32,000 nucleotides of DNA from positions 1 to 32,000 of the forward strand of contig NC_020305.1 in assembly GCF_000341395.1 (NCBI RefSeq). The letters are read 5' to 3'. Source of the stretch: Desulfocapsa sulfexigens DSM 10523 (GTDB taxonomy: Bacteria > Desulfobacterota > Desulfobulbia > Desulfobulbales > Desulfocapsaceae). Position numbers and translations under genes: made by a program. The notes under the pieces are model-generated. The model had not been told where the DNA came from. It ran no database searches and was given only the letters and a program-made list of their open reading frames with translations. Positions 2,651 to 29,544 of the stretch are shown one piece after another. The stretch's first letter is position 1; each line of letters starts with the position of its first letter.

Positions 2651-3045
2651 TCAAGTAGCTATAAGAACCCTGCCCATAACTCCAAATACAATATCGTAGA
2701 TTTCAGGATCACTAGATGCGCTCTTCCCTGCTACATTCAATGTTTCGATCTGATTTTTCTTAACCCACCCTATGATTTCCTCTCCGGCTTCATCGATGGA
2801 AAGTTTTTTCATATCCAGATGCAACCATGGCTTACAGTGCTTAATAGCAAGTTTCCTGGTGAGATCAGAGCCACCTGACAATTTGCCCTGCTGAAAAATG
2901 ACAGTTCCATCGGAATCCATAACATTCTGCTCTGTACGTTTTGGATAACCCCTGGTCGGCATTTCCTTCATAATATACTTTATGTCCAGAGGGCCTTCTA
3001 TTGTCCTGCACCCGTTTGTCCACCTGATATTATCTTCTTTAGCAT
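2651..3045 (-). pseudogene. Frameshifted SLOG / 'putative molybdenum carrier' (YpsA-like) gene
   Basis: ORF 2651..2971 (..RGYPKRTEQNVMDSDGTVIFQQGKLSGGSDLTRKLAIKHCKPWLHLD...LNVAGKSASSDPEIY..) lacks the family's N-terminal GGQTG loop. That loop is encoded upstream in a different frame: ATG at 3045, MLKKIISGGQTGAGQ*, stop at 2998-3000. A 1-nt indel near 3000-3005 would join the two parts. Confidence 0.55.
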
Positions 3046-3129
3046 TAAAGTTTACCTATAAGTCAACCAACTGGTTCTGCTTCCGAAGACTCCACTGGAA
3101 ACGATGATATCCTGTGCATTATAGGGAAT

Positions 3130-3161
3130 GAATTGGAAGTCAACGAATAGACTTCCAATTC
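3130..3161. repeat. 12-bp perfect hairpin (GAATTGGAAGTC-N8-GACTTCCAATTC)
   Basis: Arms are 3130-3141 and 3150-3161. It lies between the SLOG pseudogene start and GC-rich element copy 1. No adjacent U-tract. Confidence 0.6.
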
Positions 3162-3201
3162 AATTCACCTTCTGCCCTATGATTCATATGTCAATAATCA
3201 C

Positions 3202-3228
3202 AATAATGATACAAGTCATATAAATGAT
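3202..3228 (+). promoter_or_regulatory. Bipartite motif AATAATGATA-N7-TATAAATGAT (copy 2)
   Basis: The sequence AATAATGATAcaagtcaTATAAATGAT lies about 35 nt from the end of the homologous core of GC-rich element copy 1. Confidence 0.45.
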
Positions 3229-3262
3229 TTTTGAGACAGCTCCCCAAAGGACGGTACCAAGA

Positions 3263-3805
3263 ATCCTATTATCATGCGCCGCAGGCCAAGCCCACCCCGG
3301 AATCCTGGTCAGGTGTGTTGTCCGGCTGAACTTTGGAGCGAAGATCAGGGCAGGTATTACCGCCAATGGTGGGATATAACAGACGGACAACACCACTTTA
3401 GGCTGGACTTGGATATACTCCCGGAACGTGGACCGGGCGGGCTCCCAGGGTAGTTCCTGGGTGCGTGACCGGAGCAAGTATCCTGGATCTACCACGGAGC
3501 TGTTCGGGATCGGGTGTGGCCTCCGCGCTTTTGCGGTGGACACCATACTAAGCAGGTGATGGAGATACCACCAGACCGCACAGAGGCAGGGCCCCTGGCT
3601 GTTGTTGGCCAGGTGCACTGCCGAAGCTGGGAGTTTGCATCACCGGGTCATGCGCGCGGCAACCTACCTGGCATCTGCACGGATGGAGCGCAGGTCGCGG
3701 CTTCTGCTGGCTTGGCCGGGCGATGCGAAAGAACGGCGGTTGTTTTGCCGGGCTGCAGCCGACCGGGAAAGACAATTGCAGAGGACGTGCCGGAGCGGGT
3801 GCGGG
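3263..3805 (-). ncRNA. GC-rich ORF-free element, copy 1; candidate large structured RNA of unclassified family
   Basis: Homologous to 28427-29144 on the opposite strand, with several identical blocks of 20 nt or more. Indels between the blocks break every reading frame. The overlapping track ORFs lying largely within 3184..3951 are artefacts of a stop-poor GC-rich sequence. Strand was assigned from G.U-type helix substitutions (see findings). Confidence 0.5.
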
Positions 3806-4123
3806 ATGATATATATAAGAGGCACCTTTAATCGATCCATTGACAAGAAATTCAGACCTTCGATGCGGCAATCTGGACCTGATGTAACCCAGTAACAACC
3901 CGACAACCTAAATGAAACGTCCATACCCGTACGGAGCTGGGATATCCCCACCTGGCTACCCGACTAGATGATGTTACTCATAAAAAAACTGATATATCTC
4001 CCCATTTCCTATCTATTAACCACCCGTACACTCCTCTGTCATCAATTTCCAGCAAATTTTCAATCCCCGAAAACCACAATTACATGGATCATTTATACTT
4101 TTCAGATAACTACTTGTTATTTA

Positions 4124-4152
4124 TTGACATTGTCTCGAGAACATTTTAAACT
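4124..4152 (+). promoter_or_regulatory. Sigma70-like promoter for the cargo operon (TTGACA-17-TAAACT)
   Basis: TTGACA at 4124-4129, a 17-nt spacer, then TAAACT at 4147-4152, about 70 nt upstream of the first operon gene. Confidence 0.4.
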
Positions 4153-4221
4153 TATCGTGCGATGGCATCATACTTATATACACTAAGCCCCAAAATAGCT
4201 TAACAACTAAGAGCGAACCTT

Positions 4222-4950
4222 TTGAAAATTGGCCTTTTACTCTGTGATCATGTACTCGAACCATTGAGAGAAGCTGCGAAGGGTGACTATGATTGTATGT
4301 ACGAAGCAATGGTCACCAAGGCTGCTCATCAGATACACTTAGCGGCCCCTCTTACTATCAAAAAATATTTTGTGATCGACGAATATTTCCCAGACTCACC
4401 TAATGATTGTGACGCATGGTTAGTAACATGCTCCCACCACGATGCAAATGAAGATAACCATTGGATTTCTCGGTTAAAATGTTTCGTTTTAGAAATAATA
4501 GAATACAGAAAGCCATTAGCTGGAATTTGCTTTGGCCATCAATTAATTTCATTAGTCCTTGGCGGGAAAGTGGCAAGACGAAATAAATGGATCGCTGGTG
4601 TACAGAAAGTTCACCTCAGGTCAAATCAATTCTCATCACAACCTAACATAAAACTATTAAGTCTTCATAGAGACGAGGTCACAGTCGCACCTCCAAATGC
4701 CAACGTTATTGCTTCATCTTCCCAAGTTCCGATAGCAATGCTATCCATACCACCTAATATCTTGACTTTTCAGCATCATATGGAGTACACAAAAAGGTAT
4801 TTAATAGCCCTAATTAATTCCAGAAAAGATCTTATAGGATCAGAAATCACCCAAATTGCACTAAATGGAATGAGTCAGGATTTGGATAGCAGTTATGCTG
4901 GAAGACTACTTTTGAAGTTCCTAGCCCAACACAGAAATTTAAATCAATAA
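4222..4950 (+). CDS. Class I glutamine amidotransferase-like protein (GATase1)
   Basis: Nucleophile elbow GICFGHQL and a later FQHHME (His/Glu) fit the GATase1 triad. The N-terminal MKIGLLLCDH is typical of the family. The start is TTG at 4222, with AAGAG about 8 nt upstream. Confidence 0.7.
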   Translation: MKIGLLLCDHVLEPLREAAKGDYDCMYEAMVTKAAHQIHLAAPLTIKKYFVIDEYFPDSPNDCDAWLVTCSHHDANEDNHWISRLKCFVLEIIEYRKPLAGICFGHQLISLVLGGKVARRNKWIAGVQKVHLRSNQFSSQPNIKLLSLHRDEVTVAPPNANVIASSSQVPIAMLSIPPNILTFQHHMEYTKRYLIALINSRKDLIGSEITQIALNGMSQDLDSSYAGRLLLKFLAQHRNLNQ

Positions 4951-4987
4951 AGACCATCAACACATTTAATAGATCGAAGGAGAAATC

Positions 4988-5926
4988 ATGCCTGCTAAGC
5001 CTATCGTTGCAATCAAAGTTGGAGATCACCTTATACAGCCATGGATTGACAGAATGACTCCATTGCTTCCGGAGTTTGACTTTATTTCATGGCATGATAA
5101 TCCTGACCAGGATCTTGTAGAATACGTTATTGGCTGGTGTCCTGATGCTAGGTGGATAAACGGCTTTCCAAATATTAAAGCTGTCGTTTCTGTGGGTTCG
5201 GGTGTAGATCATATCATTCACCTAGATGAATTAAAAGATACTATCCCAGTAATAAGGACAGTTTCAGACGATCTTATTCAAAGAGTGCGAGAGTTTGCAG
5301 CGCTTAGCGTTTTATCCTGGCATCGACAATTCCCTCAAATAATAGAAAATAATAGCATTAGAGAATGGAAAAGATTCTCAATGGAAACCTCTAGCTATTA
5401 TAAAGTTGGTGTAATGGGCTATGGTTCTATGGGCAAAGCCGTTGCGGAAACATTATCGTCACTTGGTTACAATGTTTCAGTTTGGGCAAATAGTAAGCGA
5501 GATCTTCCTTACAATTATTACTATGGACGGGACAGTCTTAGTAAATTCGCAAAAGATTTGGACATCCTGATCTGCTTACTCCCACTAACCAATGAAACAG
5601 AGAACATCCTCAATGAAGAATTAATGAGAAGTATGAATCAGGGAGGATGTGTTATTAATTTTGCAAGGGGAGCACATTTAGTAGATGATGACCTATTCAA
5701 AGTCTTAGATGATAGTCATTTATCAGCAGCCTACCTTGATGGATTTAGAGAAGAACCTCTTCCCTATAATTCCAAATTTCTTTCCCACGAGAAAGTAATC
5801 GTCACCTTTCATTCAGCAGGGTACATTTCACCTGACATTGGCCCTAAAGTTATAGCTGCAAATATCCAAAAGTTTGAGCGTAATGAAACGCCATGGCCTA
5901 TGTATAATAGAGAAAAAGGATTCTAA
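4988..5926 (+). CDS. D-isomer-specific 2-hydroxyacid dehydrogenase (GhrA-like)
   Basis: NAD-binding fold GVMGYGSMGKAVAETLSSLGYNV, the INFARGAHLVDDDL segment, LDGFREEPLP and a C-terminal H fit the family. AAGGAG precedes the ATG. Confidence 0.75.
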   Translation: MPAKPIVAIKVGDHLIQPWIDRMTPLLPEFDFISWHDNPDQDLVEYVIGWCPDARWINGFPNIKAVVSVGSGVDHIIHLDELKDTIPVIRTVSDDLIQRVREFAALSVLSWHRQFPQIIENNSIREWKRFSMETSSYYKVGVMGYGSMGKAVAETLSSLGYNVSVWANSKRDLPYNYYYGRDSLSKFAKDLDILICLLPLTNETENILNEELMRSMNQGGCVINFARGAHLVDDDLFKVLDDSHLSAAYLDGFREEPLPYNSKFLSHEKVIVTFHSAGYISPDIGPKVIAANIQKFERNETPWPMYNREKGF

Positions 5927-5927
5927 T

Positions 5928-6833
5928 ATGGCTAATTGGCAGCTTCTAGTCCAAGCCCCTAGTACAGGTTTTCTACTTTCAGTTGTTGGAGTCGCTATAA
6001 GCCTTATTGGAACAACCGTAGGTATCTATACATTACTAAAGGTAAAAAAAGTAGTAAAGGCCCAGATTGAGGAGAGAAAGCTAACGCAAGAGTTGCTTGA
6101 TGTAGATCAAATAGAGAAAGATCTAAGACGAGTTGTTTCTAAACTAATGCAGGTTAATGACCACGACTCGGTTTCGCTCGCTAACGCACTCTCACAACGT
6201 TTGGGGGCAATCCAGGGTACAAGGAGAGTAATTGATCATGGTGCATCAGCTTGCGGTTGTGCATCGGGCGATGCTGTTTCCATTAAAACTGGTTTTTTCT
6301 GTTCGACACATGTTGATGATTTCATAGAACAAAGCACCTCTCGTATTGACCTCATGACTGGTAGTACAAGGCTAATAGCAGGGTATTTTACTATGGACAA
6401 GATCAAACAGGCATGTGAACGTGGTGTCAAGGTCCGGATAGTTGGGCTATCCCCCGAGGCACCTGATGATATTTTATTAGATGCAGCAAAAACTGTCTCA
6501 AAGCCAGCCCCTGAAACAGCCGAAGACTATCGTAACCTTATAAAGGCAAACCACAACGAAATTAGCAAGGTCGTAAACTCTTGGCCTGCACAAACAAAAG
6601 AACGATTTGAATACCGGGAGAATTTTGGTGTCCCCAGGGTATCTATTGCAAAATCAGATGATGTAATATGCTTAGGTTTCTTACAATTGTTTAGAGATGC
6701 CCAGCCTGAAAAAATCAACGATAGGCAATACATCAAGATTCCCCAAGATTCAGAGTTGGGAAGTGTAGTAATGAAACACTTTGAGCAGGGTTGGAGTGAA
6801 AGTAAGAAAATCATACCAGCAAAAAGCGGATAA
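5928..6833 (+). CDS. Membrane-anchored protein: N-terminal TM helix, coiled-coil, and a possible HKD-less PLD-like C-terminal domain
   Basis: The ATG at 5928 follows the upstream stop (5924-5926) by 1 nt, so I prefer it to the track start at 5874. The TM segment is FLLSVVGVAISLIGTTVGIYTLL. C-terminal ..RIDLMTGS..GVKVRIVGL..VSIAKSDDVICLGF resembles PLD-fold strands, but no His-x-Lys motif is present. The domain call is tentative. Confidence 0.5.
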   Translation: MANWQLLVQAPSTGFLLSVVGVAISLIGTTVGIYTLLKVKKVVKAQIEERKLTQELLDVDQIEKDLRRVVSKLMQVNDHDSVSLANALSQRLGAIQGTRRVIDHGASACGCASGDAVSIKTGFFCSTHVDDFIEQSTSRIDLMTGSTRLIAGYFTMDKIKQACERGVKVRIVGLSPEAPDDILLDAAKTVSKPAPETAEDYRNLIKANHNEISKVVNSWPAQTKERFEYRENFGVPRVSIAKSDDVICLGFLQLFRDAQPEKINDRQYIKIPQDSELGSVVMKHFEQGWSESKKIIPAKSG

Positions 6834-6878
6834 CATAAATATTTCCTGTGGTTCTTCGCACTTTCTGAGGACAACATC

Positions 6879-7808
6879 ATGGCCAGTTTTGCATTTTTCT
6901 TGGATCCGCTTGATACTTTATCCTTAGACAAGGATTCAACCTTACAGATAATAAAGCAAGGATATTTAAAAGGTCATGATGTCGCCGTATTTCATGATAA
7001 GGATCTAATAGTCCGAGATGGTGCTGTTATTATCAACTCAAGAATTATTGATTTTACAGCAGAAACACTCTCGGCACAGGTTGATTGCAAAAAAGATATT
7101 ACTGACTTCGATATACTTTTTGTTCGCAGGGACCCACCAGTAACCATTGAATTCTACACTAGTTTAAGCATACTCTCATCAATCGAAGCTAATATCCCCT
7201 GTATAAACTCTCCTTCTTCTATTTTAACCTTTCCCGAAAAAATTGGGCCTACCACCTTTAAACAACTACACCCTCCAACATTAATTTCCAGTAATCTTTC
7301 CGAAATCTATGACTTTAAAAAAGAACATGGAGCTGTCGTAGTAAAACCGTTATACAATTACTGTGGAAATGGGGTTTATATTAGTTTACAAAATGATCGA
7401 AATTTCAACTCTATCCTCTCACTGTTCAAAATGAACAGTAATACGCCTATATTATTGCAGAAATTCATAGAAGACGTTTCAGACGGCGACAGACGGATCA
7501 TAATGCTAGGTGGTGAACCCGTAGGTGCCATAAACCGTAAGGCAAGCCCCAATGATTTTAGATGCAATATGTTTGCTGGTGGAACCCCAACACTTCATAA
7601 CCTATCGTCGACCGAATTAGAAATGTGTGCCCAAATAAGCCCGATACTGACTGAAAGAGGTCTACATCTAGTTGGAATTGATATTATTGGCAACTATATA
7701 ACAGAAATTAATACAACCGCACCTACAGGTATATTTCAAATTGCCGACCTTGGTGGCCCGAATCTATGTGCTACAATAATTGACTACGCAGAAACGCTAA
7801 TAAAATGA
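6879..7808 (+). CDS. Glutathione-synthetase-family ATP-grasp ligase (GshB-like)
   Basis: Collinear with prokaryotic GshB as I recall it: FFLDPLDTLSLDKDST (N-terminal domain), FVRRDPP, VVVKPLYNYCGNGV, LLQKFIEDVSDGDRRIIMLGGEP, FRCNMFAGG, LVGIDIIGNYITEINTTAPTG. Confidence 0.75.
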   Translation: MASFAFFLDPLDTLSLDKDSTLQIIKQGYLKGHDVAVFHDKDLIVRDGAVIINSRIIDFTAETLSAQVDCKKDITDFDILFVRRDPPVTIEFYTSLSILSSIEANIPCINSPSSILTFPEKIGPTTFKQLHPPTLISSNLSEIYDFKKEHGAVVVKPLYNYCGNGVYISLQNDRNFNSILSLFKMNSNTPILLQKFIEDVSDGDRRIIMLGGEPVGAINRKASPNDFRCNMFAGGTPTLHNLSSTELEMCAQISPILTERGLHLVGIDIIGNYITEINTTAPTGIFQIADLGGPNLCATIIDYAETLIK

Positions 7809-8875
7809 GCTATCCAACAAATACATCAGACATTGAGGTTCCATTTCTCAAAATTTCAGGCTCTCCCAAAGAAATGGGCCTAACTCATGGAGAAACATAT
7901 CGTAATTTAATAGGAACTCTCTTCGAAATACGCCATGAATTACTCTTAAAAGGTGCCAAAGGATCTGATGAAAATAAAATTGAAGACATAGCGTATTCTT
8001 TCTGGAAATATATCAGCAATTTTGACAAGCCCTTAGCAATAGAATTGGAATCAACAGCCAAAGCAGCGAATATTCTTCCATGGAAGCTGGTTGTTGCAGG
8101 TGGTTTCACTGATCTTATGGATGCGCTTTCAACTACTATTCATCCAGATTATCATGAATGCACCGTTGCCATCGACCCTGCCAAAGGCTTCATCGCTGGA
8201 ACATGGGACAGCCACCCCGAAGCAGGAGAAGCACTAATCCTGTTAGAACGACACCCGAATAACGGCCCTGCAACTCTAGCCCTCACAACAGCTGGCTGGC
8301 CATGTCAACAAGGCCTCAATAGTTATGGTGTTGGATTTGCGATTACCAATCTCACCCCAAACAAATCTTCAAAACATGGCCTAGTTTATATTGCTGCTAA
8401 TGCTTTCTTAGGAACAGCACAAAGTACATCTCACATCTTAAACCAGCTAAAAACAGAAACTTATTGCTCAGGCCATTCTTACATTGTTCTTGATAGAACT
8501 GGATCTGGTGCAATTATGGAAACAACCAACACCACAACTAATATTTTACAAATTAACTCTCTCACCACCAAGGCTAATCATTACCTATCTGGGCCACAAA
8601 GCATTGATAACAACAGTAATTATCTCTACTATGACTACAGTATTTCACGTGAAAAGGAATTACATGAGAACATATCCCAAATGGCTAATGCACAAGATTT
8701 TCCTAGTTGCCTCTTTAATTCTCAGAAAGTCAATCGTACTGATAGTTCTCAGGTAGCTATCACTTGCGCACATTTTCTAATTTCGGTAATCGATAATACG
8801 ATTTGGTACGCAAAAGGCCCTGCTCTTCCTCCTCTAAAATATCAGATGCTATCAAAAACATTAAGTGACGAGTAA
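7805..8875 (+). CDS. Peptidase C45 / acyl-CoA:6-APA acyltransferase-like Ntn hydrolase
   Basis: N-terminal FLKISGSPKEMGLTHGE, the candidate nucleophile context HECTVAI, then GTWDS and the ...GHSYIVLDRTG... core are typical of the C45 family. The start overlaps the upstream stop (ATGA at 7805-7808). Confidence 0.65.
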   Translation: MSYPTNTSDIEVPFLKISGSPKEMGLTHGETYRNLIGTLFEIRHELLLKGAKGSDENKIEDIAYSFWKYISNFDKPLAIELESTAKAANILPWKLVVAGGFTDLMDALSTTIHPDYHECTVAIDPAKGFIAGTWDSHPEAGEALILLERHPNNGPATLALTTAGWPCQQGLNSYGVGFAITNLTPNKSSKHGLVYIAANAFLGTAQSTSHILNQLKTETYCSGHSYIVLDRTGSGAIMETTNTTTNILQINSLTTKANHYLSGPQSIDNNSNYLYYDYSISREKELHENISQMANAQDFPSCLFNSQKVNRTDSSQVAITCAHFLISVIDNTIWYAKGPALPPLKYQMLSKTLSDE

Positions 8876-8876
8876 A

Positions 8877-10559
8877 ATGAAAATAGCAATTATATTCCCA
8901 CCAATTTTTGACCCTTCAATGCCATACTTGGCACCTTTTCAGCTGAAATCTTACATAAAAAAGCGTAGACCTTCATGTGAAATAGATGTCTGCGACCTAA
9001 ACATTCTTTTCTTTAATAGCATTGTAAATAACCCATACAAAAATTTTAACTACAGTTTAAACAATACCTCGTCATATGAATCAATTATTACATGTGAAAG
9101 CAGTATCACAAGCGCGTTATCTAATTGGTCTCAAACCCATGGCGTTGAAATAACAAGACAAAGTGCTGACTATTTTTTTGATACCAGCAATTCTGAAGGC
9201 TATGAATCATTTTTAGAAAATACGACACCATTTGAAAACTACCTAAGCAACCTTATAATCAATCATATTGACATTCCAAAATATGATCTTTTCTTCTTCT
9301 CTATTACTTCTTATGAACAGCTCCTCCCCTCTTTAATCCTGTCTAAAATTGTAAAGTCGATGAACAAAACGACGAATATTTGCCTTGGGGGAAATATTAT
9401 ATCAAGAATTTTCAAAGGGCTCCTTAATAGTCCCCTGCTAACTTCTATTGATTTCCTTGTCATTAAAGAAGGAGAACTACCTAGCGTAAATCTTGTCGAT
9501 TATCTATCAAATCGTAAGCCTGGTAACCTAACCAATAGTCTCATTGAAGTTTCAACCAAAAAAGTTATCGACAGAACTCAGAAATCTAAAATTTTTGAAA
9601 TAGACCAAATTCCTACTATTGAATTTAACGAAGAAGAGTTAGGCTTATATTTCTCACCTGAACCTGTGATACCAATTTCATTGGCTAGGGGTTGCAGCTG
9701 GGGAAAGTGTTCATATTGCGGCATTCACACGGTATGGGGTTCCGGATATCGAACAAAGCTCCCCATTAAACTTGCTAATGAAATTGAGAATCACAAAAGA
9801 AGGTATTCAACTAATAATTTCCGCTTAATTGACGAATCTCCTGCAATCAAAGACCTACTTAAACTCTCCGACGAACTAATCAGTAAAAACCTTGAAGTCA
9901 ACATCGAAACTTATTTAAACCTAAGCTCAGCACTTTCAGATCGAGAAACAACAAATACACTTTACGAAGCAGGATTCAACCAGCTATTTCTTGGAATTGA
10001 AAGTTTGAACAAGGAATTATTGACAGAAATTGGTAAATCCATAAATCACCCCAACCGGTATGCTGATTTACTTGAAAGTACACACGAAGCAGGGATATCA
10101 AACTATTCCTTCCTTATGGTTGGCCTACCTAATGATTCAATCAATAATGAATTAGAAGTTGAGAAGTTTGTACTTTCAAATAGTGACATTGATACAATAG
10201 CTATTTCAAGCTTTATACCACTCAGCAACTCACCAATGTATTCAGACATCAGCTTTCAATCCAAACACGGTATCAAGTTTACACCCAGGGGGCCATTGAC
10301 AACTAGGTGTGATTACAAAACAAATAACAGAGACGTCAGTGAAGAAACCAATAATAGAGCCAAGGCAATGGCTAATCGGATCTTCATAGGACGAAGAGAT
10401 CTCTGCCTCTCTAGCAATATCCCCTATGAATCCCGGTTTTATTTAATCAATAAATTTGGAAACAATTGCTTTAAGGACTTAGCAAAAGCCACCAGTTTCA
10501 GTTTTAATGAACCTCTGATAAGTACAGAGCTAGACGGCAGGCTTACTGGCCTAAAATAA
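8877..10559 (+). CDS. B12-binding-domain radical SAM protein
   Basis: The N-terminal MKIAIIFPP... is a Rossmann-like B12-type domain. The cluster motif ARGCSWGKCSYCG is followed by LFLGIESLN and SFLMVGLP, which are characteristic of radical SAM cores. The ATG at 8877 lies 1 nt after the upstream stop, so I prefer it to the GTG at 8865. Confidence 0.7.
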   Translation: MKIAIIFPPIFDPSMPYLAPFQLKSYIKKRRPSCEIDVCDLNILFFNSIVNNPYKNFNYSLNNTSSYESIITCESSITSALSNWSQTHGVEITRQSADYFFDTSNSEGYESFLENTTPFENYLSNLIINHIDIPKYDLFFFSITSYEQLLPSLILSKIVKSMNKTTNICLGGNIISRIFKGLLNSPLLTSIDFLVIKEGELPSVNLVDYLSNRKPGNLTNSLIEVSTKKVIDRTQKSKIFEIDQIPTIEFNEEELGLYFSPEPVIPISLARGCSWGKCSYCGIHTVWGSGYRTKLPIKLANEIENHKRRYSTNNFRLIDESPAIKDLLKLSDELISKNLEVNIETYLNLSSALSDRETTNTLYEAGFNQLFLGIESLNKELLTEIGKSINHPNRYADLLESTHEAGISNYSFLMVGLPNDSINNELEVEKFVLSNSDIDTIAISSFIPLSNSPMYSDISFQSKHGIKFTPRGPLTTRCDYKTNNRDVSEETNNRAKAMANRIFIGRRDLCLSSNIPYESRFYLINKFGNNCFKDLAKATSFSFNEPLISTELDGRLTGLK

Positions 10560-10852
10560 CAAGATAAATAAATCTACGGAAAATAGAGTTGTTAACTGTT
10601 CAGCCGCAATCGCATAGCACTATATTTTGTAAACAGGAGCGTTAGGATTACAATTTAAGTTTAAATCATGTGTTTCTTCCAAATAACCATTCTATTTTAC
10701 CTTTCGTTATCTTAAGGTAAGGTCTCTGCGTAGGCACTGTCTTCAAATCTAAATCATCCTTCATACAAGCCTTCCAATGCAATTGATATTCATCTTGATA
10801 TTCCACTCCTATTATGTTCTATGATTTATATGCCAACAATATCAACAATCAG

Positions 10853-10880
10853 AAGAATGATAAAAGGTGTATAAATGATA
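10853..10880 (+). promoter_or_regulatory. Bipartite motif AAGAATGATA-N7-TATAAATGATA (copy 3), overlapping the parA start codon
   Basis: In AAGAATGATAaaaggtgTATAAATGATA, the ATG inside the second half-site (10875-10877) is the ParA start. Confidence 0.5.
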
Positions 10881-11507
10881 GTGGCAATAGTTAACCAAAA
10901 AGGCGGCACGGGCAAAACCACGATAGCCGTCAACCTCGCTTTTGGAACCGCTAACGCAAAATATCCTACCGCCCTGGTCGATGCCGATACCCAGGCAACC
11001 TGTCTCCATTTTTATGGTAACCAGGACATAGAAAACCTTACCGTCTGTTCTGCCGGTGATGATGTCCGGGAAACGGTGCAACAGTTGAGCAAGGATCACC
11101 GCTTTGTTTTTATAGACACAGCCCCTCACGATAACGATTCCATGTACCTTGCCATGGTCACTGCTGATCTGATAATCATCCCCACCAGACCACGGCCCTT
11201 TGATCTTCACTCCTCGGAAAAGGTAGTGGAGATGCTCCGGAGTATCGAGAACGAGTATGGCTACACGCCCTGCTATTTCCTCCTCAATCAAGTAAAACAC
11301 GGTACCATTCTCGGCAGGGAAACCCTGGATTATATCCAGCACAACTTTGAACTGCCTGTCCTGAAAACCCAGATCCATGATTATGAGATTTACGGACAGG
11401 CGCCATTATCCGGACAATCCGTATTCCTCTACGCACCCAAGCATAAAGCAGCTCAAGAGTTGAGAAACCTGCTGCGAGAGATGAACAAAATATACAAATC
11501 TCAATAA
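10875..11507 (+). CDS. parA: ParA/Soj-type partition ATPase
   Basis: Deviant Walker A VNQKGGTGKTT, Walker A' VDADTQA, and Walker B VFIDTAP. The size (210 aa) fits type Ib ParA. Confidence 0.85.
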   Translation: MIVAIVNQKGGTGKTTIAVNLAFGTANAKYPTALVDADTQATCLHFYGNQDIENLTVCSAGDDVRETVQQLSKDHRFVFIDTAPHDNDSMYLAMVTADLIIIPTRPRPFDLHSSEKVVEMLRSIENEYGYTPCYFLLNQVKHGTILGRETLDYIQHNFELPVLKTQIHDYEIYGQAPLSGQSVFLYAPKHKAAQELRNLLREMNKIYKSQ

Positions 11508-11611: not shown

Positions 11612-11881
11612 ATGGGCTTGCTCGACAGCACAGTGATGAAGCAGAAAAAACCAATCAGCAAGAGCAGTGAAGAAATATTAGCTGCCAGGCGTAAAACCAC
11701 TCCGACTGTAAAAGGCAAGGCCGGGAGACCTGCCAAGTACCCAAGAGATGAAAACACCAAGCGCATGAATGTGTTTATCCCTGGTGATATCCACAAACAG
11801 CTCAGACAGGCGAGTGTCGATTTGGATGCTTCGATGAATGAAATTATTGTTGATGCTTTACTGGCAAAGTTCAAGAAGTGA
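11612..11881 (+). CDS. Ribbon-helix-helix protein; ParG/omega-like partner of ParA
   Basis: A Lys/Arg-rich disordered N-terminus is followed by KRMNVFIPGDIHKQLRQASVDLDASMNEIIVDALLAKF, a beta-strand plus two helices. GGAGG precedes the ATG. Confidence 0.65.
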   Translation: MGLLDSTVMKQKKPISKSSEEILAARRKTTPTVKGKAGRPAKYPRDENTKRMNVFIPGDIHKQLRQASVDLDASMNEIIVDALLAKFKK

Positions 11882-12101: not shown

Positions 12102-14786
12102 TTACGACTCGTTCGTATCGTGTGCAGGTTTAAGATTAAACCTGCCATGATCGTGTTTGTAACACACTATTTCAGCACGTAATTGATCACCCGCATCAAA
12201 CTCTTCAAGTAATAACGCGCCAGCATCTTTAAGTTTATTAAATTCAGAAATGTGTATCAAGCCAGTGCCTTCAATACCAAATTCAACGAACAGGCCGTAT
12301 TTCTTTATCCCTGTTACCTGGCAGTCAACTACTCTACCAGGAGGATATTTTTTTTGTAATGTTTCCGTATCAGAAGTACTACTTGCCTTCTCTTTTAGTT
12401 TTTGGACATATTCTTTTGGTTCTGTAATATTGCAAAAATCATGAATTCTCTCTTCTGCTAATATAGCTTCAGGGTTTGCCAGATAACTATCTTTATATTC
12501 TTCTAAGTAAGATAGCAAAACTGAGGCATTATCAACTGATGAAGAGTATGACATGTGTCCTTTACCTTTACTCCCAATTAATCTATCTGCTATATCTTCC
12601 GCAATGCGTGCATCTTTAAACCATACATCTTCAGAACACGTTGAAAGGTAATCTAAATTTATGAGTAAATCCAGATGGACATGTCCAGATGGAGCAATTG
12701 AAATAAGGTCATCAATTGAAAATTGATTGATGTTTTGAGACTCAGTTGATATACATCCCGCCTTGATTAGTTCAGATATTTCATCAGATAACCTTCTTTC
12801 GTCATGCCCATATGCTACTAGTTCATTAATGATTGTCGCGGTTTTATGATACCCAAGCATCCCGCTTGGACCTTTAGTTCGATATTTTTTCTTTAACCAA
12901 GATAAAACTGACAACCTCGCAAAAGGATCTGGTATTATATCTTCTGGAAAAGATGCAAAAATATTTTTAACGAGGCTGTTAGCATCATTGTAGTACCTTC
13001 TGTTCCCGCGAAAAAGAACCCTGGTAACGATATGCTTTGGTAAAACATAATCACCCTTTGCATGCCTTATTTTAAATATCTGGTCTTCATGAATGTGTCC
13101 ACTTTTGCAAAAATCAAGAAAAATTTCCAACCCTTTTCTGATATTTGACCCAGCAATTCCTGAAACTATTCGCCTAAAAAGTGCATCATTTTGGAATAGT
13201 GAACGCAAAATACAAGCTAAATAATATGCTTGTTCAGATTGTGGATATTCAACTCGAAATCCATTTGGAAGAACATAGGACAATGAATTCTCTTTCTCCG
13301 TATCCATTTCAGCGAGAGCAAGTTTGACTCTCTTGTAAAGAACATCCATGAATAGTGGCGCATCAATTCGGAAGACTAAATCTTTGATGACTGTATCTAG
13401 TGGTGGTTCTGTTCTGTGGTGATCATATGTGGTGTCACGGATAGGTAGAAATACTAGACATCTACATGTTTTTTGGAGCCATTTCGCTACATCAAACATT
13501 AGCAATTGGTCGTCTCGATTCCGTTTGTCACTATTATCAAGTGACACAATTAATAACTTTTGTCTCTCAGCACAAAAATGGCGAATACATGCATTCATAG
13601 TTGCATCTGTATCACCTTGCACTCTGATCAACTCATCCGCCAAAAGGCTTTTATATTTGTCTGAATACTCGTCAAAATAGGCCCCAGCACCTTTTTTAAT
13701 TTTATTAAGCTCAACACTATATAATTTTTCTAAAAAAGGTAGACTGTCGAAATCAATATCAGCGTTATGGTTCCTGAATTCATTAATTATCTCATTCTCC
13801 AACCAAGAATAAATCACCCCTCTTGAAAGAGGTGCCAGATTCATATTAATGGATATCCACACAGTTGATTCTTTAATTTCTTCAGGTAAGGAGACTTCCC
13901 TTAGATAATCAATGAATGTTGATTTTCCGCTCCCAACACCTCCAATAAGAACTAATAATTGGTGGTGAAGTTTGTCGTTTGGTGTAAGAGTTCTCAACAG
14001 TTCACTTGGGTCTGTCGTTGAAATTTGATGAGCATCTGTGATACTTGGCGGATTTGCTGCGCGGATTATTTTGTCAATCGGATCTACATGTCTGAGGCGC
14101 CTTGTTGATTTTACATAAGCTTTCTTAACAATGTTTTTTCTTTCCTCCTCTGATTCAGGGTTGAACAAATGCCGATACTCAAGTGCCAAAGTATTACCAA
14201 ACGAATTTAGCTTCACTTCCTCATTTCTTACTGATCGTCCTCCTATAATGTTTGTAGGTCTCTTAAATTGAACATTGCCTCTCAATTTTTTTTGTTCTAC
14301 ATCAGAGAATTTTTCTAAATTTACCTTACAACCAAATGTAATCAATTTTGCGAGATTTGGATGAGATGCGTCTATTTCAGTATTAGAAATTTCTAGTAAT
14401 ATTGAACTGTCATCCCATGAGCCACAAATTGTACGTAATGAATTCGTTGCGATTAATTTCTGACAAGGATTAAAATGAGAAGGAAAAAGTGAATTTATTT
14501 CACCTGCATATAGCCTTGCTTCACGAATAGCCTCTTCAAGGTTGTTATCCTCTGGATGTTTTGCTTCAATTACAAGAACAGGAAGGCCGTGTAAGATAAC
14601 TATATAGTCCGGATAGTATAGTTTTTTTGCCCTTCCCTTGTCTATTTCAAGCTGCCTAATATCTGGCTTGGTTCTAAAGTCGCATGAAGAGTATCCTAAC
14701 CCAACAGGTTGACTATTAGTAAGTAGTGGAAGAATGAACTTCTGCTCGACATCGCTTTCATTCTTTATATCTTTCTCAGAAATCAT
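12102..14786 (-). CDS. 894-aa fusion: HsdR-N-type PD-(D/E)xK nuclease, P-loop NTPase, helical region, and C-terminal S1 (OB-fold) domain
   Basis: aa 10-95, ESDVEQKFILPLL...YPDYIVI...VLVIEAKHP...AIREARLYA, matches the type I restriction R-subunit N-terminal nuclease motif (D60, E74, K76). Walker A is LIGGVGSGKST (aa 280-290) and Walker B is LLIVSLDNSD (aa 411-420). aa 816-886, GRVVDCQVTGIKKYGLFVEFGIEGTGLIHISEF...GDQLRAEIV..., is a canonical S1 domain. Confidence 0.7.
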   Translation of the reverse strand: MISEKDIKNESDVEQKFILPLLTNSQPVGLGYSSCDFRTKPDIRQLEIDKGRAKKLYYPDYIVILHGLPVLVIEAKHPEDNNLEEAIREARLYAGEINSLFPSHFNPCQKLIATNSLRTICGSWDDSSILLEISNTEIDASHPNLAKLITFGCKVNLEKFSDVEQKKLRGNVQFKRPTNIIGGRSVRNEEVKLNSFGNTLALEYRHLFNPESEEERKNIVKKAYVKSTRRLRHVDPIDKIIRAANPPSITDAHQISTTDPSELLRTLTPNDKLHHQLLVLIGGVGSGKSTFIDYLREVSLPEEIKESTVWISINMNLAPLSRGVIYSWLENEIINEFRNHNADIDFDSLPFLEKLYSVELNKIKKGAGAYFDEYSDKYKSLLADELIRVQGDTDATMNACIRHFCAERQKLLIVSLDNSDKRNRDDQLLMFDVAKWLQKTCRCLVFLPIRDTTYDHHRTEPPLDTVIKDLVFRIDAPLFMDVLYKRVKLALAEMDTEKENSLSYVLPNGFRVEYPQSEQAYYLACILRSLFQNDALFRRIVSGIAGSNIRKGLEIFLDFCKSGHIHEDQIFKIRHAKGDYVLPKHIVTRVLFRGNRRYYNDANSLVKNIFASFPEDIIPDPFARLSVLSWLKKKYRTKGPSGMLGYHKTATIINELVAYGHDERRLSDEISELIKAGCISTESQNINQFSIDDLISIAPSGHVHLDLLINLDYLSTCSEDVWFKDARIAEDIADRLIGSKGKGHMSYSSSVDNASVLLSYLEEYKDSYLANPEAILAEERIHDFCNITEPKEYVQKLKEKASSTSDTETLQKKYPPGRVVDCQVTGIKKYGLFVEFGIEGTGLIHISEFNKLKDAGALLLEEFDAGDQLRAEIVCYKHDHGRFNLKPAHDTNES

Positions 14787-15009: not shown

Positions 15010-16305
15010 TTAAACATCCTCCCCCAGCCGCTCCCCAATAAAAACAGCTAACATCCCCTCAACCATTCCAGGGGTCACCCCTGCCTCATCATATCGTTTC
15101 AGCACAATCGTGTTGCCGGTCGCCACTAGGTTCTCGCGGAATTCAGCCAAAAAAGCTTCTCTCTCCCCTTCCCCCATGGATTCATACCGTGACATGGCAA
15201 GTTCCTGTTTCTGCCTTTTTTCGGCTTCCTGGCCATCTTCCTGCTGTTTTTTAGCTATCCTCTCCTGGATAACAGCTTTTTGCTGTACTTCATACTCCAC
15301 TTCAATAATTGATTCCTGCGGCTTCCATCCCTCTTCAATGGCCTTCCTGGCAATGCCTCCGACACTCTCCACCTTCTGGCCGCGCTTTCGCACCTTGTTT
15401 ATATATTCTCTTGCCATCTGCAAGGCCGCCTTAATGTGATCATGGCCGTACTCTTCCACCAGCTCCTGTGCTTTTTTCTCGGGAGAAATACCGAACTCCA
15501 TGATCAGAATATCTTCCATGGAGGTCTGCCCTCCCCTGTCACTTATTCCTGGAAGCTCCATCTGCTGATAGCGTTTATTTTTGCTCCAGGTAAACTCAAT
15601 CTCCTGTACCTTCCGTCCCTTCTTGATCTGGATAAAATCAAATTGAACATCGGTCTTGGCGGCTATATCCTTTTTGGCTGGCAACAGAACTTTTGATTTA
15701 AAATGACCAAACAGCCGGTATGTTCCTTCGGGAATGGCCAGATATTCACGGAGCCAGGAAAGCTCAACTCTTGCAGATTTGCGGTGATCCACATTGGCAA
15801 GCCCCTGGTTGTACTTGATGAACTGATAAATTCGCAGGGAGTAGTGATTTCTTAGACGAATGACCGCCCTTGCTTCTCCAAGGGTGGTGAAATTACCTTT
15901 CAGGGCAAGAAGAAACGGTTTGAGGGTCGGGTCAAAGCGTAATTCAACACACCCTTTCCCTGGGATAATAGAGGCGGAAGAGCACCAGGTGGTTTTGTCG
16001 ATCCGGCCATCTGCCTTTTCATCCGGATTGATCCAGCGAATAACCTTCTTCAGCAGCCCTTCTGTGGCCTCATCAAAACGAGCATAGAGATCATTGCGGC
16101 TGCCCCCCATGATATTGCAGAGTTCCCTGATGGATATCCGGTAGGGCTTGAAATCCTTATCACCTCGTTGGATCAGCGACAGCATATAGAGCACCAACCG
16201 CTGTTCGTTAATCTTCAATTGCGGCCATTGTGCTTCTATGAGCAGATCATTAGAGGCAGCTATCAGACCACCGCCCTCTTCCTTTTTGATCACCTCGTCA
16301 GTCAA
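15010..16305 (-). CDS. repA: Rep_3-family plasmid replication initiator
   Basis: SNDLIEAQWPQLKINEQRLVLYMLSLI...YRISIRELCNIMG...Y..F.EATEGLLKK is the typical Rep_3 N-terminal winged-helix signature. Iterons lie immediately upstream. A charged C-terminal extension is present. Confidence 0.8.
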   Translation of the reverse strand: MTDEVIKKEEGGGLIAASNDLLIEAQWPQLKINEQRLVLYMLSLIQRGDKDFKPYRISIRELCNIMGGSRNDLYARFDEATEGLLKKVIRWINPDEKADGRIDKTTWCSSASIIPGKGCVELRFDPTLKPFLLALKGNFTTLGEARAVIRLRNHYSLRIYQFIKYNQGLANVDHRKSARVELSWLREYLAIPEGTYRLFGHFKSKVLLPAKKDIAAKTDVQFDFIQIKKGRKVQEIEFTWSKNKRYQQMELPGISDRGGQTSMEDILIMEFGISPEKKAQELVEEYGHDHIKAALQMAREYINKVRKRGQKVESVGGIARKAIEEGWKPQESIIEVEYEVQQKAVIQERIAKKQQEDGQEAEKRQKQELAMSRYESMGEGEREAFLAEFRENLVATGNTIVLKRYDEAGVTPGMVEGMLAVFIGERLGEDV

Positions 16306-25980: not shown

Positions 25981-26072
25981 TTGGTGTGGATACGCTAGAT
26001 TCCCTTTGAACCGCTGCTGATGGATACAAACTTCCAGCTTCGACCATGTGCCCAGAAACGACATCTAGCCCA

Positions 26073-26128
26073 GATTCAGGTTAAAACTGTCACGGCTTTT
26101 ACCACTTCCCGCTTTAGTTAGATAGAGT
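26073..26128 (+). repeat. 56-nt fragment homologous to 28927-28982, which lies inside GC-rich element copy 2
   Basis: GATTCAGGTTAAAACTGTCACGGCTTTTACCACTTCCCGCTTTAGTTAGATAGAGT aligns with GATTCCGGTTAAAACTGTCACGGCTTTTGCATCTTCCCGCTTCAATTAAATGGAGT at 48/56 identical positions by hand. A weaker match lies upstream: TTCCAGCTTCG at 26032-26042 matches 28606-28616. Confidence 0.75.
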
Positions 26129-26159
26129 ATCCGGGCAACAAACAAATATCAGTCTTGGT

Positions 26160-26988: not shown

Positions 26989-27029
26989 ATGAATCCCTCC
27001 AAATATAATATGGGCCAACTTACTCTCTT

Positions 27030-27134: not shown

Positions 27135-28388
27135 ATGAAAAGACAGAATGCATTTTTTGAAGCACTTGGCGTTGATGCAACAAATAGTAAGGAGGTAACG
27201 CGACTTGCTGTAATTAGCGGCATTTCCGTTAAAAAACTTCGTTACTACAATGAACATCACCTGATGCCCTCTGGCACTGAGTTGGAGAAGATCATAGAAA
27301 CAACCAATGTAACTAAGTTGAAGCTTATGTTGAAACTTGGTTGTGTTGATCATAATGTTGCAGGAATGCTAAGTGAACATGCTGATGAAATTATTACTCT
27401 TTTTGAAAAAGAGAAAAAACAAACAAAAGCCAAAAAAAGATTACAGCCTGTCTTTGAAACAAATCTAGGAAAGCTTTATCACGGTAATTGTATTGAAGTC
27501 CTGATGCAGATGCCAAGCAATAGCGTTGATATGGTCTTTGCAGATCCACCGTTTAATCTGAACAAATTGTATCCCTCTAACATAAATGATGACTTAAAGG
27601 CTGAACAGTATCTGGATTGGTGTGAAGATTGGATAGACGAATGTGTGAGGGTCCTAAAGTTTGGCGGAGCGTTTTTATTATGGAATTTGCCAAAATGGAA
27701 TTCTGCTTTATCTAATTTTCTGAATGATAGATTAACTTTCAGGCATTGGATTGCTACCGACATCAAATATAGATTACCGATTAAAGGTAGACTGTATCCT
27801 GCACACTATTCTTTGCTGTATTATATAAACGGAGACAAGCCTAAAACATTCCATCCTGATAGGTTGCCAATGCAGGTATGTCCAAAATGTAGTGGTGATC
27901 TGAAAGATTATGGTGGCTATAAAGCAAAAATGAATCCAGCTGGAGTTAATATGTCTGATATCTGGATTGATATTCCACCAGTCCGTCATAATAAATATAA
28001 GCGTCGCGAGGGGGCCAACGAACTATCACTTAAACTGCTCGATAGAATAGTGGAAATGAGCACCGATGAGGGAGACATTGTCTTTGATCCTTTTGGTGGT
28101 TCAGGTACTACCTACATGGCCTCTGAATTGAAAAAACGTAAATGGATTGGGTGTGAAATCGGCCCAGTTGATGATATTGTTAACAGGTTTGACCACATCA
28201 ACGAAGAGAGGGAAATTCTAAATAATTATCGTGATAATTTAAATAGTTTATTTCCAAAGCAGATCTTAAAAAAAAGAGAAAAGGAAGGGCTATGGACCTG
28301 TGAATCTGTCAGAAGTAAAGCTGCATTAAAAATGTCTACAACTACCTACACAGAAAACTCCATTCCCCAGCTTGCAAAGACCAAATGA
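27135..28388 (+). CDS. Beta-class amino-DNA methyltransferase (N4-C or N6-A) with an N-terminal extension of about 110 aa
   Basis: Motif IV, VFADPPFN, precedes motif I, VFDPFGGSGTT, which is the beta permutation. The gene is divergent from C/R, as in the BamHI system. The N-terminal SKEVTRLAVISGISVKKLRYYN looks HTH-like. Confidence 0.8.
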   Translation: MKRQNAFFEALGVDATNSKEVTRLAVISGISVKKLRYYNEHHLMPSGTELEKIIETTNVTKLKLMLKLGCVDHNVAGMLSEHADEIITLFEKEKKQTKAKKRLQPVFETNLGKLYHGNCIEVLMQMPSNSVDMVFADPPFNLNKLYPSNINDDLKAEQYLDWCEDWIDECVRVLKFGGAFLLWNLPKWNSALSNFLNDRLTFRHWIATDIKYRLPIKGRLYPAHYSLLYYINGDKPKTFHPDRLPMQVCPKCSGDLKDYGGYKAKMNPAGVNMSDIWIDIPPVRHNKYKRREGANELSLKLLDRIVEMSTDEGDIVFDPFGGSGTTYMASELKKRKWIGCEIGPVDDIVNRFDHINEEREILNNYRDNLNSLFPKQILKKREKEGLWTCESVRSKAALKMSTTTYTENSIPQLAKTK

Positions 28389-28426
28389 TTACAGGTTATA
28401 CACAATCCGAGGTACGGAAAGTCCCC

Positions 28427-29144
28427 CCCGCACCCGCTCCGGCACGTCCTTTGCGTTTGTCTGCCCCGGTCGGCTGCAGCCCGGCAAACTGCCGCCGGTC
28501 TTCCGCTGCGCCCAGCTCAGCCAGCAAAGGCCCCGCCTCCACTCCTTCCGTGCAGGCTGCAGCGCTCCAGCTCCGCTTCAAGCCGGATCCCCGGTATCCC
28601 CAAGTTTCCAGCTTCGGCAGTGCACCTGGCAAAACAACACGCCAGGAGCCCTGCCTCTGTGCGTTCTGGTGGTAGACTCACCACCTGCTTAGTGTGGTGT
28701 CCACCGGCACATATTTTATAGCAGGCACAAAAAAATACTGCGCCCGCTATAAAAATGTGCGGAGGCCACACCCGATCCCGATCCGTGGCAGATCCAGGAT
28801 CCTTTCTCCGGCCACGCACCCAGAAACTACACCTGGGAGCCTGTCCGGTACCGGCTTTGGTGAGTAAGCCCAAGTCCTGCCTAAAGTGGTGTCCACCGCA
28901 AAAGCGCGGAGGCCACACCTGACACGGATTCCGGTTAAAACTGTCACGGCTTTTGCATCTTCCCGCTTCAATTAAATGGAGTTTCAGGGGCAAAAGCTCA
29001 CGCCAGTTTTACCGGTAAGTGTCCGCTTGCGCGAATCACAGTGGACGCGGGATACTGCCCCGCTTATGCCCCGGCCCGGTAAGTCAGATATGGGCAGGCA
29101 TTCCGGGCCGGGGTATCTTTGGCCTGCGGCGCATGATAGAGGAT
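28427..29144 (+). ncRNA. GC-rich ORF-free element, copy 2; candidate large structured RNA of unclassified family
   Basis: Collinear with the reverse complement of 3263-3805. Identical blocks include CCCGCACCCGCTCCGGCACGTCCT (28427-28450), CCAGCTTCGGCAGTGCACCTGGC (28608-28630) and GCGGAGGCCACACCCGATCCCGA. It carries two hairpin-forming insertions (28707-28760 and 28935-29106) relative to copy 1. Confidence 0.5.
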
Positions 29145-29180
29145 CACTCCGGCCAGCACCGCCCCAGCCACCCGCCAGCA

Positions 29181-29305
29181 CAACCCCAAAACACAAACCG
29201 CCATAGCCCACCTGGTGCTGCAATGCAAGGTCGGTTGTCCAGTAGGGCACTCCACCTTGCATTGCAGCACCAGGCAGGCTTAAAGACATGGCGGTTTTGG
29301 GGTTG
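29181..29305. repeat. 125-nt composite hairpin (about 43 paired positions, including a perfect 21-bp stem)
   Basis: The perfect 21-bp stem is CCTGGTGCTGCAATGCAAGGT (29211-29231) with ACCTTGCATTGCAGCACCAGG (29254-29274). Outer helices are AGCC/GGCT, AAACCGCCAT (29195-29204) with ATGGCGGTTT (29288-29297), and CAACCCCA (29181-29188) with TGGGGTTG (29298-29305). Confidence 0.8.
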
Positions 29306-29487
29306 CACTGTCGGGTTTGGCTTAGGGGCTCTTGCTTCTCCCGGCCTCCGTTCTGAAAGTTTGGCGTTGCACGCTCTGAAAAAGACAGATACCTCCGGTG
29401 GGGGGTTCCCTCTCAGGTTTGGCCAAAGTCCGTGCCAGTTCCGCCTGTCCCAGGGTATGTTTTTACTGTTTAGTACGCACTGTTTCC

Positions 29488-29515: not shown

Positions 29516-29544
29516 TATGTAAGCTAAAATATTTATTATATCAG

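Follow-up and report, generated by a model that had tools for sequence, protein, structure and literature searches.

A duplicated, hairpin-rich non-coding element on a plasmid of Desulfocapsa sulfexigens: a candidate gene for a lineage-specific structured RNA

Large ornate non-coding RNAs (ROOL, GOLLD, OLE, raiA and the HEARO/IsrB omega RNA) occur in hundreds to thousands of genomes and display strong covariation, and two of these classes, ROOL and GOLLD, are often found on phages. On the megaplasmid of Lactobacillus salivarius, a long non-coding RNA (lncRNA) of 520 nt has been described, which accounts for >75% of the non-rRNA reads (PMC5643018). Here, we report on an element carried by a plasmid of Desulfocapsa sulfexigens DSM 10523 (CP003986; 36,751 bp, 44% GC, 31 coding sequences), within a stretch of 32,000 nt (positions 1 to 32,000 of contig NC_020305.1, hereafter the window). 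At positions 3263 to 3805 of the window, an initial annotation had pointed out a GC-rich segment, homologous to a second one in inverted orientation, and had proposed it to specify a large structured RNA. With a probability that we place at about 0.45, and hence tentatively, we take this element to encode a structured non-coding RNA specific to its lineage, with a length of ~0.55 kb for copy 1 and of 0.72 kb or more for copy 2. By analogy, its closest kind would be the large RNAs of unknown function, especially the 520-nt lncRNA of L. salivarius.

The window contains two full copies of the element and a decayed one:

3263..3805, + strand: element copy 1, compact form of about 545 nt, with a sharp 3' end at ..CCGGAGCGGGTGCGGG
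28427..29144, - strand: element copy 2, expanded form of about 720 nt, with its core as in copy 1
26020..26145, - strand: third copy, degenerate, a single-unit deletion derivative resembling a hybrid of the units A and B described below

The coordinates and the homology of the two full copies proved to be correct: copy 1 and the reverse complement of copy 2 show 77% mean column identity after MAFFT alignment and 72% identity over 475 nt by blastn (E=4e-73), and eight inverted-repeat pairs (I1-I8) span their homology, which may begin ~20 nt upstream of 3263. In copy 2, about 130-165 nt are inserted in addition in the 5' part (approx. 28935-29113), and the hairpin called B1 below is longer by 45 AU-rich nt. 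Overall, the copies are 78% identical (22% diverged) with identical runs of 30, 25, 24, 23 and 20 nt; five runs of at least 20 identical nt were reached in none of 2000 column shuffles, which indicates clumping beyond chance, and each of the four identity blocks quoted initially is found once per copy where it had been placed. Copy 1 lies within a gene-free interval whose limits between real genes are 3047-4221, with a cpYpsA pseudogene (- strand) on one side and a glutamine-amidotransferase gene on the other. The third copy begins 14 nt past the stop codon of bamHIR, on the same strand as this gene. Regarding composition, copies 1 and 2 contain 61.3% and 59.9% GC, against 40.9% (2700-3262) and 40.2% (3806-4400) in the flanks of copy 1; the contrast is thus real but less singular than had been claimed, and constitutes weaker evidence than was assumed, since the plasmid is a GC mosaic in which coding stretches elsewhere reach 50-58%.

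With the large ornate RNAs, the element shares a size of 0.5-0.7 kb, a non-coding nature, a GC content higher than that of its surroundings and a multi-hairpin make-up, and with ROOL and GOLLD the carriage by a mobile replicon, in this case a plasmid. Its internal two-fold repetition points to repeated binding surfaces. The element differs from these classes in that it does not match their covariance models even at E<=10. Indeed, a scan of the whole window with all Rfam 15 models at their gathering score gave zero matches, including to ROOL, GOLLD, OLE, HEARO, raiA, RNase P, tmRNA, group I/II introns and rRNA, and at E<=10 the regions 3000-4300 and 28300-29700 returned only hairpin-level chance matches to miRNA and snoRNA models, far below threshold. 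This bears out the early remark that no signature of ROOL, GOLLD, OLE or HEARO can be recognized. The element also has no IscB, IsrB or TnpB gene nearby and no tRNA neighbourhood, and a search for tRNA- or tmRNA-like modules found none. Searching both copies by blastn (word size 11) against 72,556 PLSDB plasmids and 50,697 INPHARED phages gave no match, and nothing in the Rfam, plasmid or phage comparisons identifies the element as a known insertion sequence (IS) end, intron or rRNA fragment.

Relatives were sought by exact-pattern scans with the four conserved blocks across 185,579 species genomes, 241 million metagenome records and viral contigs. The genomes gave one real relative, on a contig of a groundwater metagenome-assembled genome (MAG; locus L002), together with one chance match; the metagenomes gave the L002-type relative twice together with three chance matches (L003, L004 and L021 are the same as L002); and the viral contigs gave nothing beyond one 20-nt chance match. 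The pattern scan of the rest of the MAG carrying L002 found no further copy. On L002, two copies lie in direct orientation, 1.9 kb apart, and a truncated copy-2-type element abuts the cassette of an AP2-domain gene. For the D. sulfexigens plasmid, a short-read assembly (Logan SRR25712206) is interrupted within each of the two copies, as expected of a repeat. Whereas the large ornate classes are widespread, the element is thus known from a single plasmid lineage and, with truncated copies and copies located at recombination junctions, the kinship with these classes that had been evoked is not established. The closest precedent in kind is the lncRNA of L. salivarius, which is likewise ~0.5 kb long, plasmid-borne, restricted to a single species, outside RNA family databases and devoid of a defined function. 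That RNA, however, is defined by its expression, whereas the element is known from sequence alone and likened to it by description, and has two diverged copies with an internal duplication.

The element is non-coding, in agreement with the initial proposal. Between the copies, 13 of the 14 indels are not multiples of three and the phase of substitutions is uniform (p=0.40), leaving no sign of codon-periodic homologues with an intact open reading frame (ORF), and the jump of peptide similarity from one frame to another is real (SFGSAPG in ORF 28385..28675, GALPLC.LVV in ORF 28372..28692). Five ORFs of at least 80 aa overlap one another over copy 1, on both strands, and a Pfam search with ten ORF translations over the element gave no match. 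Two ORFs are called in RefSeq, namely WP_153305020.1 (3514..3831, + strand) over the element and WP_153305025.1 (28984..29289, - strand) over the element and the long hairpin adjacent to copy 2. The first one encodes 105 aa; searched against 5.8 billion protein clusters, it retrieves only its own 90% cluster and no outside relative, and its C-terminus is swapped for unrelated residues in L002. Likewise, a 51-codon ORF that follows the ATG of the upstream cassette shows, relative to L002, about eleven changes that alter the amino acid and one or two silent ones (hand count). That conservation is not bound to a frame is further borne out by compensatory changes in several hairpins and by insertions confined to hairpin tips. 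With the homology, the clumping of identical runs, the non-triplet indels, the lack of codon phase and the frame jump all holding, the initial observation is confirmed, and it is extended by features that had been overlooked: the third copy, an internal tandem duplication and a 66-bp hairpin at 29170-29316.

Each full copy is an internal tandem duplication of a ~95-nt unit (units A and B), and an alignment of all seven unit sequences that are available has 99 columns and a column identity of 77%. R1, a covariance model built from this unit, scores the four units at 95-102 bits and has just one other match (13.8 bits, E=0.079), which falls at 26029-26124 (- strand) inside the third, decayed copy. 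From 5' to 3', a unit consists of hairpin 1 (stem GGUGU-GG-CC-U-CCGC / GCGG-U-GG-ACACC), a conserved linker (ACACCAY.YUARGCNGG), a small and less regular hairpin 2 and a 12-bp hairpin 3; unit B is separated from a 3' domain by a variable region:

3390..3483, + strand: unit A of copy 1, with the 3' arm of hairpin 1, linker ACUUUAGGCUGG, small hairpin 2 and hairpin 3 at 3433-3472; R1 98.9 bits
3540..3635, + strand: unit B of copy 1, with linker AUACUAAGCAGG, hairpin 2 at 3555-3572 and hairpin 3 at 3585-3622; R1 101.7 bits
28797..28892, - strand: unit A of copy 2, with hairpin 3 at 28808-28848; R1 95.3 bits
28603..28700, - strand: unit B of copy 2, with hairpin 3 at 28616-28655; R1 99.2 bits
3312..3394, + strand: hairpin A1 (hairpin 1 of unit A) of copy 1, its loop replaced by an insertion of ~60 nt; pairing read from sequence
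3513..3544, + strand: hairpin B1 (hairpin 1 of unit B) of copy 1, with a hexaloop; the same hairpin is A1 of copy 2 (28888-28919)
28696..28772, - strand: hairpin B1 of copy 2, its loop replaced by the 45-nt AU-rich insertion and its stem ~21 bp longer, with two G.U pairs
3688..3796, + strand: 3' domain, a long irregular hairpin with its tip at 3734-3752; helices 16-19 of the alifold model
3276..3280, + strand: 5' strand of a putative closing helix, GCGCC, pairing with GGUGC at 3798-3802
29170..29316, - strand: near-perfect 66-bp hairpin directly 5' of copy 2 and on the same strand (inverted repeats I4 and I11)

The hairpins are kept via compensatory change. In hairpin 3, all 84 cells (12 pairs in seven unit sequences) are paired and 5 of the 12 pairs are changed on both sides between units A and B, whereas control pairings with the 3' partner slid leave 18-48% of the cells paired and 0-1 double-changed pairs. 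The A1 stem of copy 1 (GGUG..UUGUCCG / CGGACAA.CACC) is compensatory relative to the other A1 and B1 stems, and a small ACCGCC/GGUGGG hairpin inside it has a C-G pair converted into U-A in L002. Between copies 1 and 2, the 3' domain shows two double changes, three one-sided compatible changes and one disruption, and GNRA-type loops remain GNRA when they change (GCAA to GGAA, GAAA to GGAA). In the 66-bp hairpin, comparison by eye of the window with L002 reveals 5-6 pairs altered on both arms with pairing retained; in the putative closing helix, which counts 5 bp only and is weakly supported, a G.U pair becomes A-U in L002. Moreover, large insertions are tolerated only at hairpin tips. The apical loop of hairpin 1 was hit by two independent ones, of ~60 nt in unit A of copy 1 and of 45 nt in unit B of copy 2, the latter lengthening the stem coaxially by about 21 bp.

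The wobble pairs are biased towards one strand, which is + for copy 1 and - for copy 2. The three best-supported helices contain 13 G.U against 2 A.C when read on the proposed sense strand (hand count, binomial p=0.004). The 66-bp hairpin has an energy of -113.3 on the strand of copy 2 versus -104.1 kcal/mol on the other, with 5 versus 1 G.U pairs; the extended B1 of copy 2 reaches -43.5 kcal/mol on the - strand versus -33.5 on the other strand, and the fold z-score of copy 2 is -7.26 on its sense (-) strand versus -4.86 on the opposite one.

Two candidate sites would lie at the origin of transcripts through the copies:

3173..3239, + strand: cassette D2, 67 nt, directly upstream of copy 1, promoter/operator-like, with repeated ATGAT/ATCAY boxes
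29535..29543, - strand: perfect extended -10 box TGATATAAT (TGnTATAAT), read from sequence

The D2 cassette, a putative promoter, is preceded by a GGAAGT..ACTTCC palindrome at 3130-3163 and has paralogues at 1995-2061, ahead of the AP2 gene, and at 10815-10881, ahead of parA and including its start codon. The plasmid encodes a theta-plasmid-like gene set, with Rep (15010-16305, - strand), ParA (10875-11507), a primase (without a relative among the viral contigs searched), a tyrosine recombinase, HU and a BamHI-type restriction-modification (R-M) cassette. After parA, ORF 11612-11881 encodes an 89-aa protein with an Arc-like ribbon-helix-helix (RHH) C-terminus (PHROG E about 1e-3). In omega/ParG-type regulons such as that of pSM19035, one small repressor controls several maintenance promoters by way of WATCACW heptads. 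The D2 boxes AATCACA/TATGATT/AATGATA resemble these heptads, with the caveat that the likeness concerns the cassette and not the element and that binding and promoter activity are predicted; similarly, the short operator array is repeated ahead of parA and of other maintenance functions, and ParA (type Ib-like, 210 aa) is followed by the small RHH protein. Cassette, ParA and RHH protein together look like an omega/ParG-type operator or centromere regulon. As for copy 2, the TGATATAAT box, which overlaps with a plus-strand promoter-like site (29488-29515), may be the promoter of a transcript running through the 66-bp hairpin and copy 2.

In the mechanism that we propose, the RNA would consist of the tandem ~95-nt units, with their conserved linker single-stranded, followed by the long 3' hairpin domain, possibly closed by the short 5'-3' helix. 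Copy 1 would be transcribed from the upstream D2 cassette, common to parA and the AP2 gene, probably under control of the ParA-associated RHH protein of the plasmid, which would place the RNA in the plasmid maintenance regulon. The two homologous units may form two equivalent binding surfaces, and the RNA would for this reason work in trans and not as a cis leader, scaffolding a dimeric or repeated partner or serving as its decoy. It is a doubtful extension of this scheme that the element would be the founding member of a new class of large, pseudo-dimeric plasmid RNAs, made up of a pair of homologous units with three hairpins each and of the long 3' domain. Such RNAs would be expressed from the RHH/ParA-controlled cassette that also serves the partition genes and would act in trans on plasmid maintenance or host interaction, for instance by sequestering or scaffolding a nucleic-acid-binding protein that is dimeric. 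Among the candidate partners is an 894-aa protein (12102-14786, - strand), whose N-terminus is HSDR_N nuclease-like and which has a P-loop region and, at its C-terminus, an S1 RNA-binding domain; it could be a defence or RNA-binding protein. HU and the AP2 and RHH proteins would be further candidates. A search of the rest of the plasmid for the complement of the conserved linker, as a possible antisense target, found nothing convincing.

Sponge RNAs offer a further comparison. Like CsrB and RsmZ, the element is repetitive and modular, and GGA is enriched on its sense strand only, by 1.5-fold (20 versus 13.4+-2.6 in copy 1, p about 0.004; 24 versus 15.2+-2.9 in copy 2, p about 0.002). However, its best-supported loops (GUAGUU, UGUUGUUG and GCUUUU) are without GGA and many GGA are located inside stems. 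CsrB has about one GGA per 17 nt, whereas the element has one per 27 nt, and the window holds no csrA gene. A CsrB-like sponge is accordingly a weak lead only.

A number of results weigh against an RNA gene. The element is found in one plasmid lineage only, that of the D. sulfexigens plasmid and the related groundwater plasmid L002; what is available amounts effectively to two independent lineages, represented by the types of copy 1 and copy 2, and an orthologue of 95% identity, and whole-element covariation is weak. Full-length RNAalifold treats the two strands about equally, with 7 versus 10 double changes for four sequences and 9 versus 6 for three, the z-score of the copy 1 fold is unremarkable on both strands (-1.97), and the minimum free energy (MFE) structure of one copy, transferred to the other, has 54 pairs broken and 23 kept. 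Between the window and L002, the element is 91.6% (5' half) and 98.7% (3' half) identical, compared with 97.2% for cpYpsA and 96.3% for intergenic DNA, and the substitution cluster in the 5' half of the L002 copy reflects gene conversion by a copy-2-type sequence, so that the identity blocks could partly stem from conversion and not from selection. Truncated (L002) and decayed copies occur. A sigma-70 consensus scan called no promoter in D2, and a terminator scan found no intrinsic terminator after either copy in the D. sulfexigens plasmid. Finally, G.T is the most stable mismatch in single-stranded DNA, and the wobble bias is therefore also compatible with hairpins acting at the DNA level. 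The claim of a large structured RNA is hence upheld as to the non-coding nature and the compensation in hairpins, and weakened by an antisense covariation equally good at full length and by the z-score of about -2 of copy 1 on both strands. Two lines of argument were discarded along the way: single-sequence MFE folds as a structure model, as these are not conserved between the copies, and excess conservation between plasmids as a sign of selection, as the neighbours are equally conserved and gene conversion is present.

The main alternative, though an unlikely one, is that the element is a structured DNA repeat, a palindrome-rich module active as single-stranded or cruciform DNA, be it as a hotspot of recombination or insertion, as a mobile element of the non-autonomous kind or as a signal for priming or related to forks. 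It would spread or persist where plasmid modules join, and its hairpins would be maintained at the DNA level. The homology that the window shares with L002 ends precisely at the 3' boundary of copy 1 (3805/3806); copies are located at junctions between modules and at breakpoints of synteny, such as the one where the truncated L002 element lies against the AP2 cassette; the AT-rich BamHI R-M cassette has the decayed copy on one side and copy 2 on the other, as direct repeats; and gene conversion between copies is visible. Watson-Crick compensation is strand-symmetric, with an antisense alifold about as good, the full copies lie on opposite strands, roughly symmetric about the iteron origin (16.2 kb versus 16413-16729), and the plasmid possesses its own primase and tyrosine recombinase. 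On inspection for hallmarks of IS, miniature inverted-repeat transposable elements and transposons, however, TATCAT/ATGATA is all that the two ends of copy 1 have in common and those of copy 2 share nothing, which leaves no terminal inverted repeat above 6 nt, and no target-site duplication flanks any copy. Copies number only 2-3 and have diverged by 22%, and the pattern scan of the L002 MAG found no others; the direct arrangement of the L002 copies, 1.9 kb apart, does not conserve the symmetric inverted geometry; and a 13:2 wobble bias with a 9-10 kcal/mol advantage of one strand would be unexpected for double-stranded palindromes.

For such a DNA element, a model is provided by Frpo elements, the single-stranded-DNA promoters found in leading regions of conjugative plasmids. 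These are regulatory regions of 50-350 bp upstream of ORFs on the transferred strand of conjugative elements, with -35, -10 and UP motifs within a stem (PMC11541004). Like Frpo and ssi sequences, which act on one strand only, the element is repeated, hairpin-rich, non-coding plasmid DNA of a few hundred nt, and G.T-tolerant stems would fit the wobble bias. Nevertheless, the ORFs of the window include no relaxase, type IV secretion or other conjugation genes, the two copies differ in strand, and neither copy 2 nor the L002 copy is followed by an ORF of the same orientation; the 66-bp hairpin contains only TTGCAT/TATGGC-type hexamers, matching at best ~3/6 each, and thus, unlike Frpo, no usable -35/-10 boxes, nor does an ORF come after it.

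Somewhat less likely still is a decaying relic, foreign GC-richer non-coding DNA that was duplicated on an ancestral plasmid and now drifts, its identity blocks being conversion patches and its hairpins inherited. An orphan distribution, truncated and internally deleted copies, documented gene conversion and the lack of excess conservation over neighbouring genes between plasmids would all agree with it, as would the other 50-58% GC segments of the mosaic plasmid and the adjacent cpYpsA, itself a pseudogene. Drift does not readily account for hairpin 3, in which 5 of 12 pairs have changed on both sides and every cell of the seven unit sequences is paired, nor for independent insertions in the same hairpin loop, nor for the retention of two full-length copies after 22% divergence and of copy 1 in a second plasmid from a different habitat.

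The last two alternatives are essentially excluded. It is very improbable that the element serves the biosynthetic operon at 4222-10559, upstream of which copy 1 is indeed located and co-oriented, as a cis-acting leader or riboswitch: an AT-rich spacer of 416 nt intervenes, as does a good sigma-70-like site (4124-4152, 10/12 matches), no riboswitch family matches in Rfam, and copy 2 faces a convergent methyltransferase gene just as the L002 orthologue precedes unrelated DNA and a convergent gene, which argues against a cis leader. Least credible of all, that WP_153305020.1 and WP_153305025.1 are real small proteins finds support in their presence in RefSeq and in the call of the former in the JGI and ENA assemblies of the related plasmid, but indels of 1, 2, 5 and 8 nt leave the copies without a common frame, no Pfam domain or phase signal speaks for them, the former has no homologue beyond its own cluster and a C-terminus that is replaced in L002, and ORF overlap on both strands is what stop-poor GC-rich DNA is expected to produce.

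Further observations concern the surroundings of the element. The cpYpsA (SLOG) pseudogene next to copy 1 (2651-3046, - strand) has suffered a ~70-nt deletion after codon 13, which creates a stop; L002 encodes at 3900-4330 an intact 154-aa cpYpsA. On L002 as well, at 2965-3010 and in minus-strand reading, a perfect 12-bp hairpin followed by a T-run is located ~100 nt beyond the 3' end of the element; it has no equivalent in D. sulfexigens and could be a terminator of the element transcript and/or of the convergent gene. The AP2-domain protein (2188-2631) has ~70%-identical chromosomal homologues in many Desulfobulbales (loci L011-L018), always between mazG and rplU-rpmA-obg, and the plasmid gene is therefore a paralogue of a conserved gene of a housekeeping neighbourhood; synteny of AP2 was dismissed as a route to relatives of the element, the chromosomal mazG/rplU-rpmA-obg loci being unrelated to it.

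Beside rep, seven 21-nt iterons are present at 16413-16729, and the cumulative GC-skew minimum is at ~17 kb. The midpoint of the two inverted copies, 16.2 kb, falls nearly on this iteron origin, and the copies therefore flank the presumed terminus symmetrically; the chance of such a placement is estimated at roughly 4%, and the geometry is not kept in L002. The AT-rich BamHI-type R-M cassette (26160-28388; R, C-protein and N4/N6 methyltransferase) lies between the decayed copy and copy 2, which have the same orientation, an arrangement suggesting that it was gained or lost via recombination at the element. Close to copy 2, a second GC-rich, ORF-poor unit of ~270 nt (29488-29812, + strand) is framed by a strong promoter-like site, TTGCAA-16-TATAAT with TG (29488-29515), and a terminator-like hairpin (29787-29804), and could specify a small RNA or an 88-aa peptide; beside this promoter, the motif GTGCGTACTAAA is found at 29469-29480, and it recurs at 29927-29947 in a palindrome before the gene at 29964. 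Downstream of copy 1, the AT-rich six-gene operon 4222-10559 (+ strand) codes for a class-I glutamine amidotransferase, a 2-hydroxyacid dehydrogenase, an unknown protein, a glutathione-synthetase-like ATP-grasp enzyme, a C45/AAT-type acyltransferase and a radical-SAM protein, and is probably a small-molecule or peptide biosynthesis cluster.

The element is real and carries no RNA annotation. Whichever reading holds, WP_153305020.1 and WP_153305025.1, listed as hypothetical proteins in RefSeq, almost certainly result from spurious ORF calls, and the repeat breaks short-read assemblies of the plasmid. D. sulfexigens DSM 10523 is cultivable and fully sequenced, which makes the system experimentally tractable. 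If transcribed, the element would represent a new family among the few bacterial non-coding RNAs of >500 nt and would be among the very few such RNAs borne by plasmids, the first from Desulfobulbales. Moreover, its link to a par-type operator cassette would then suggest that control at the RNA level takes part in the maintenance regulon of this plasmid.

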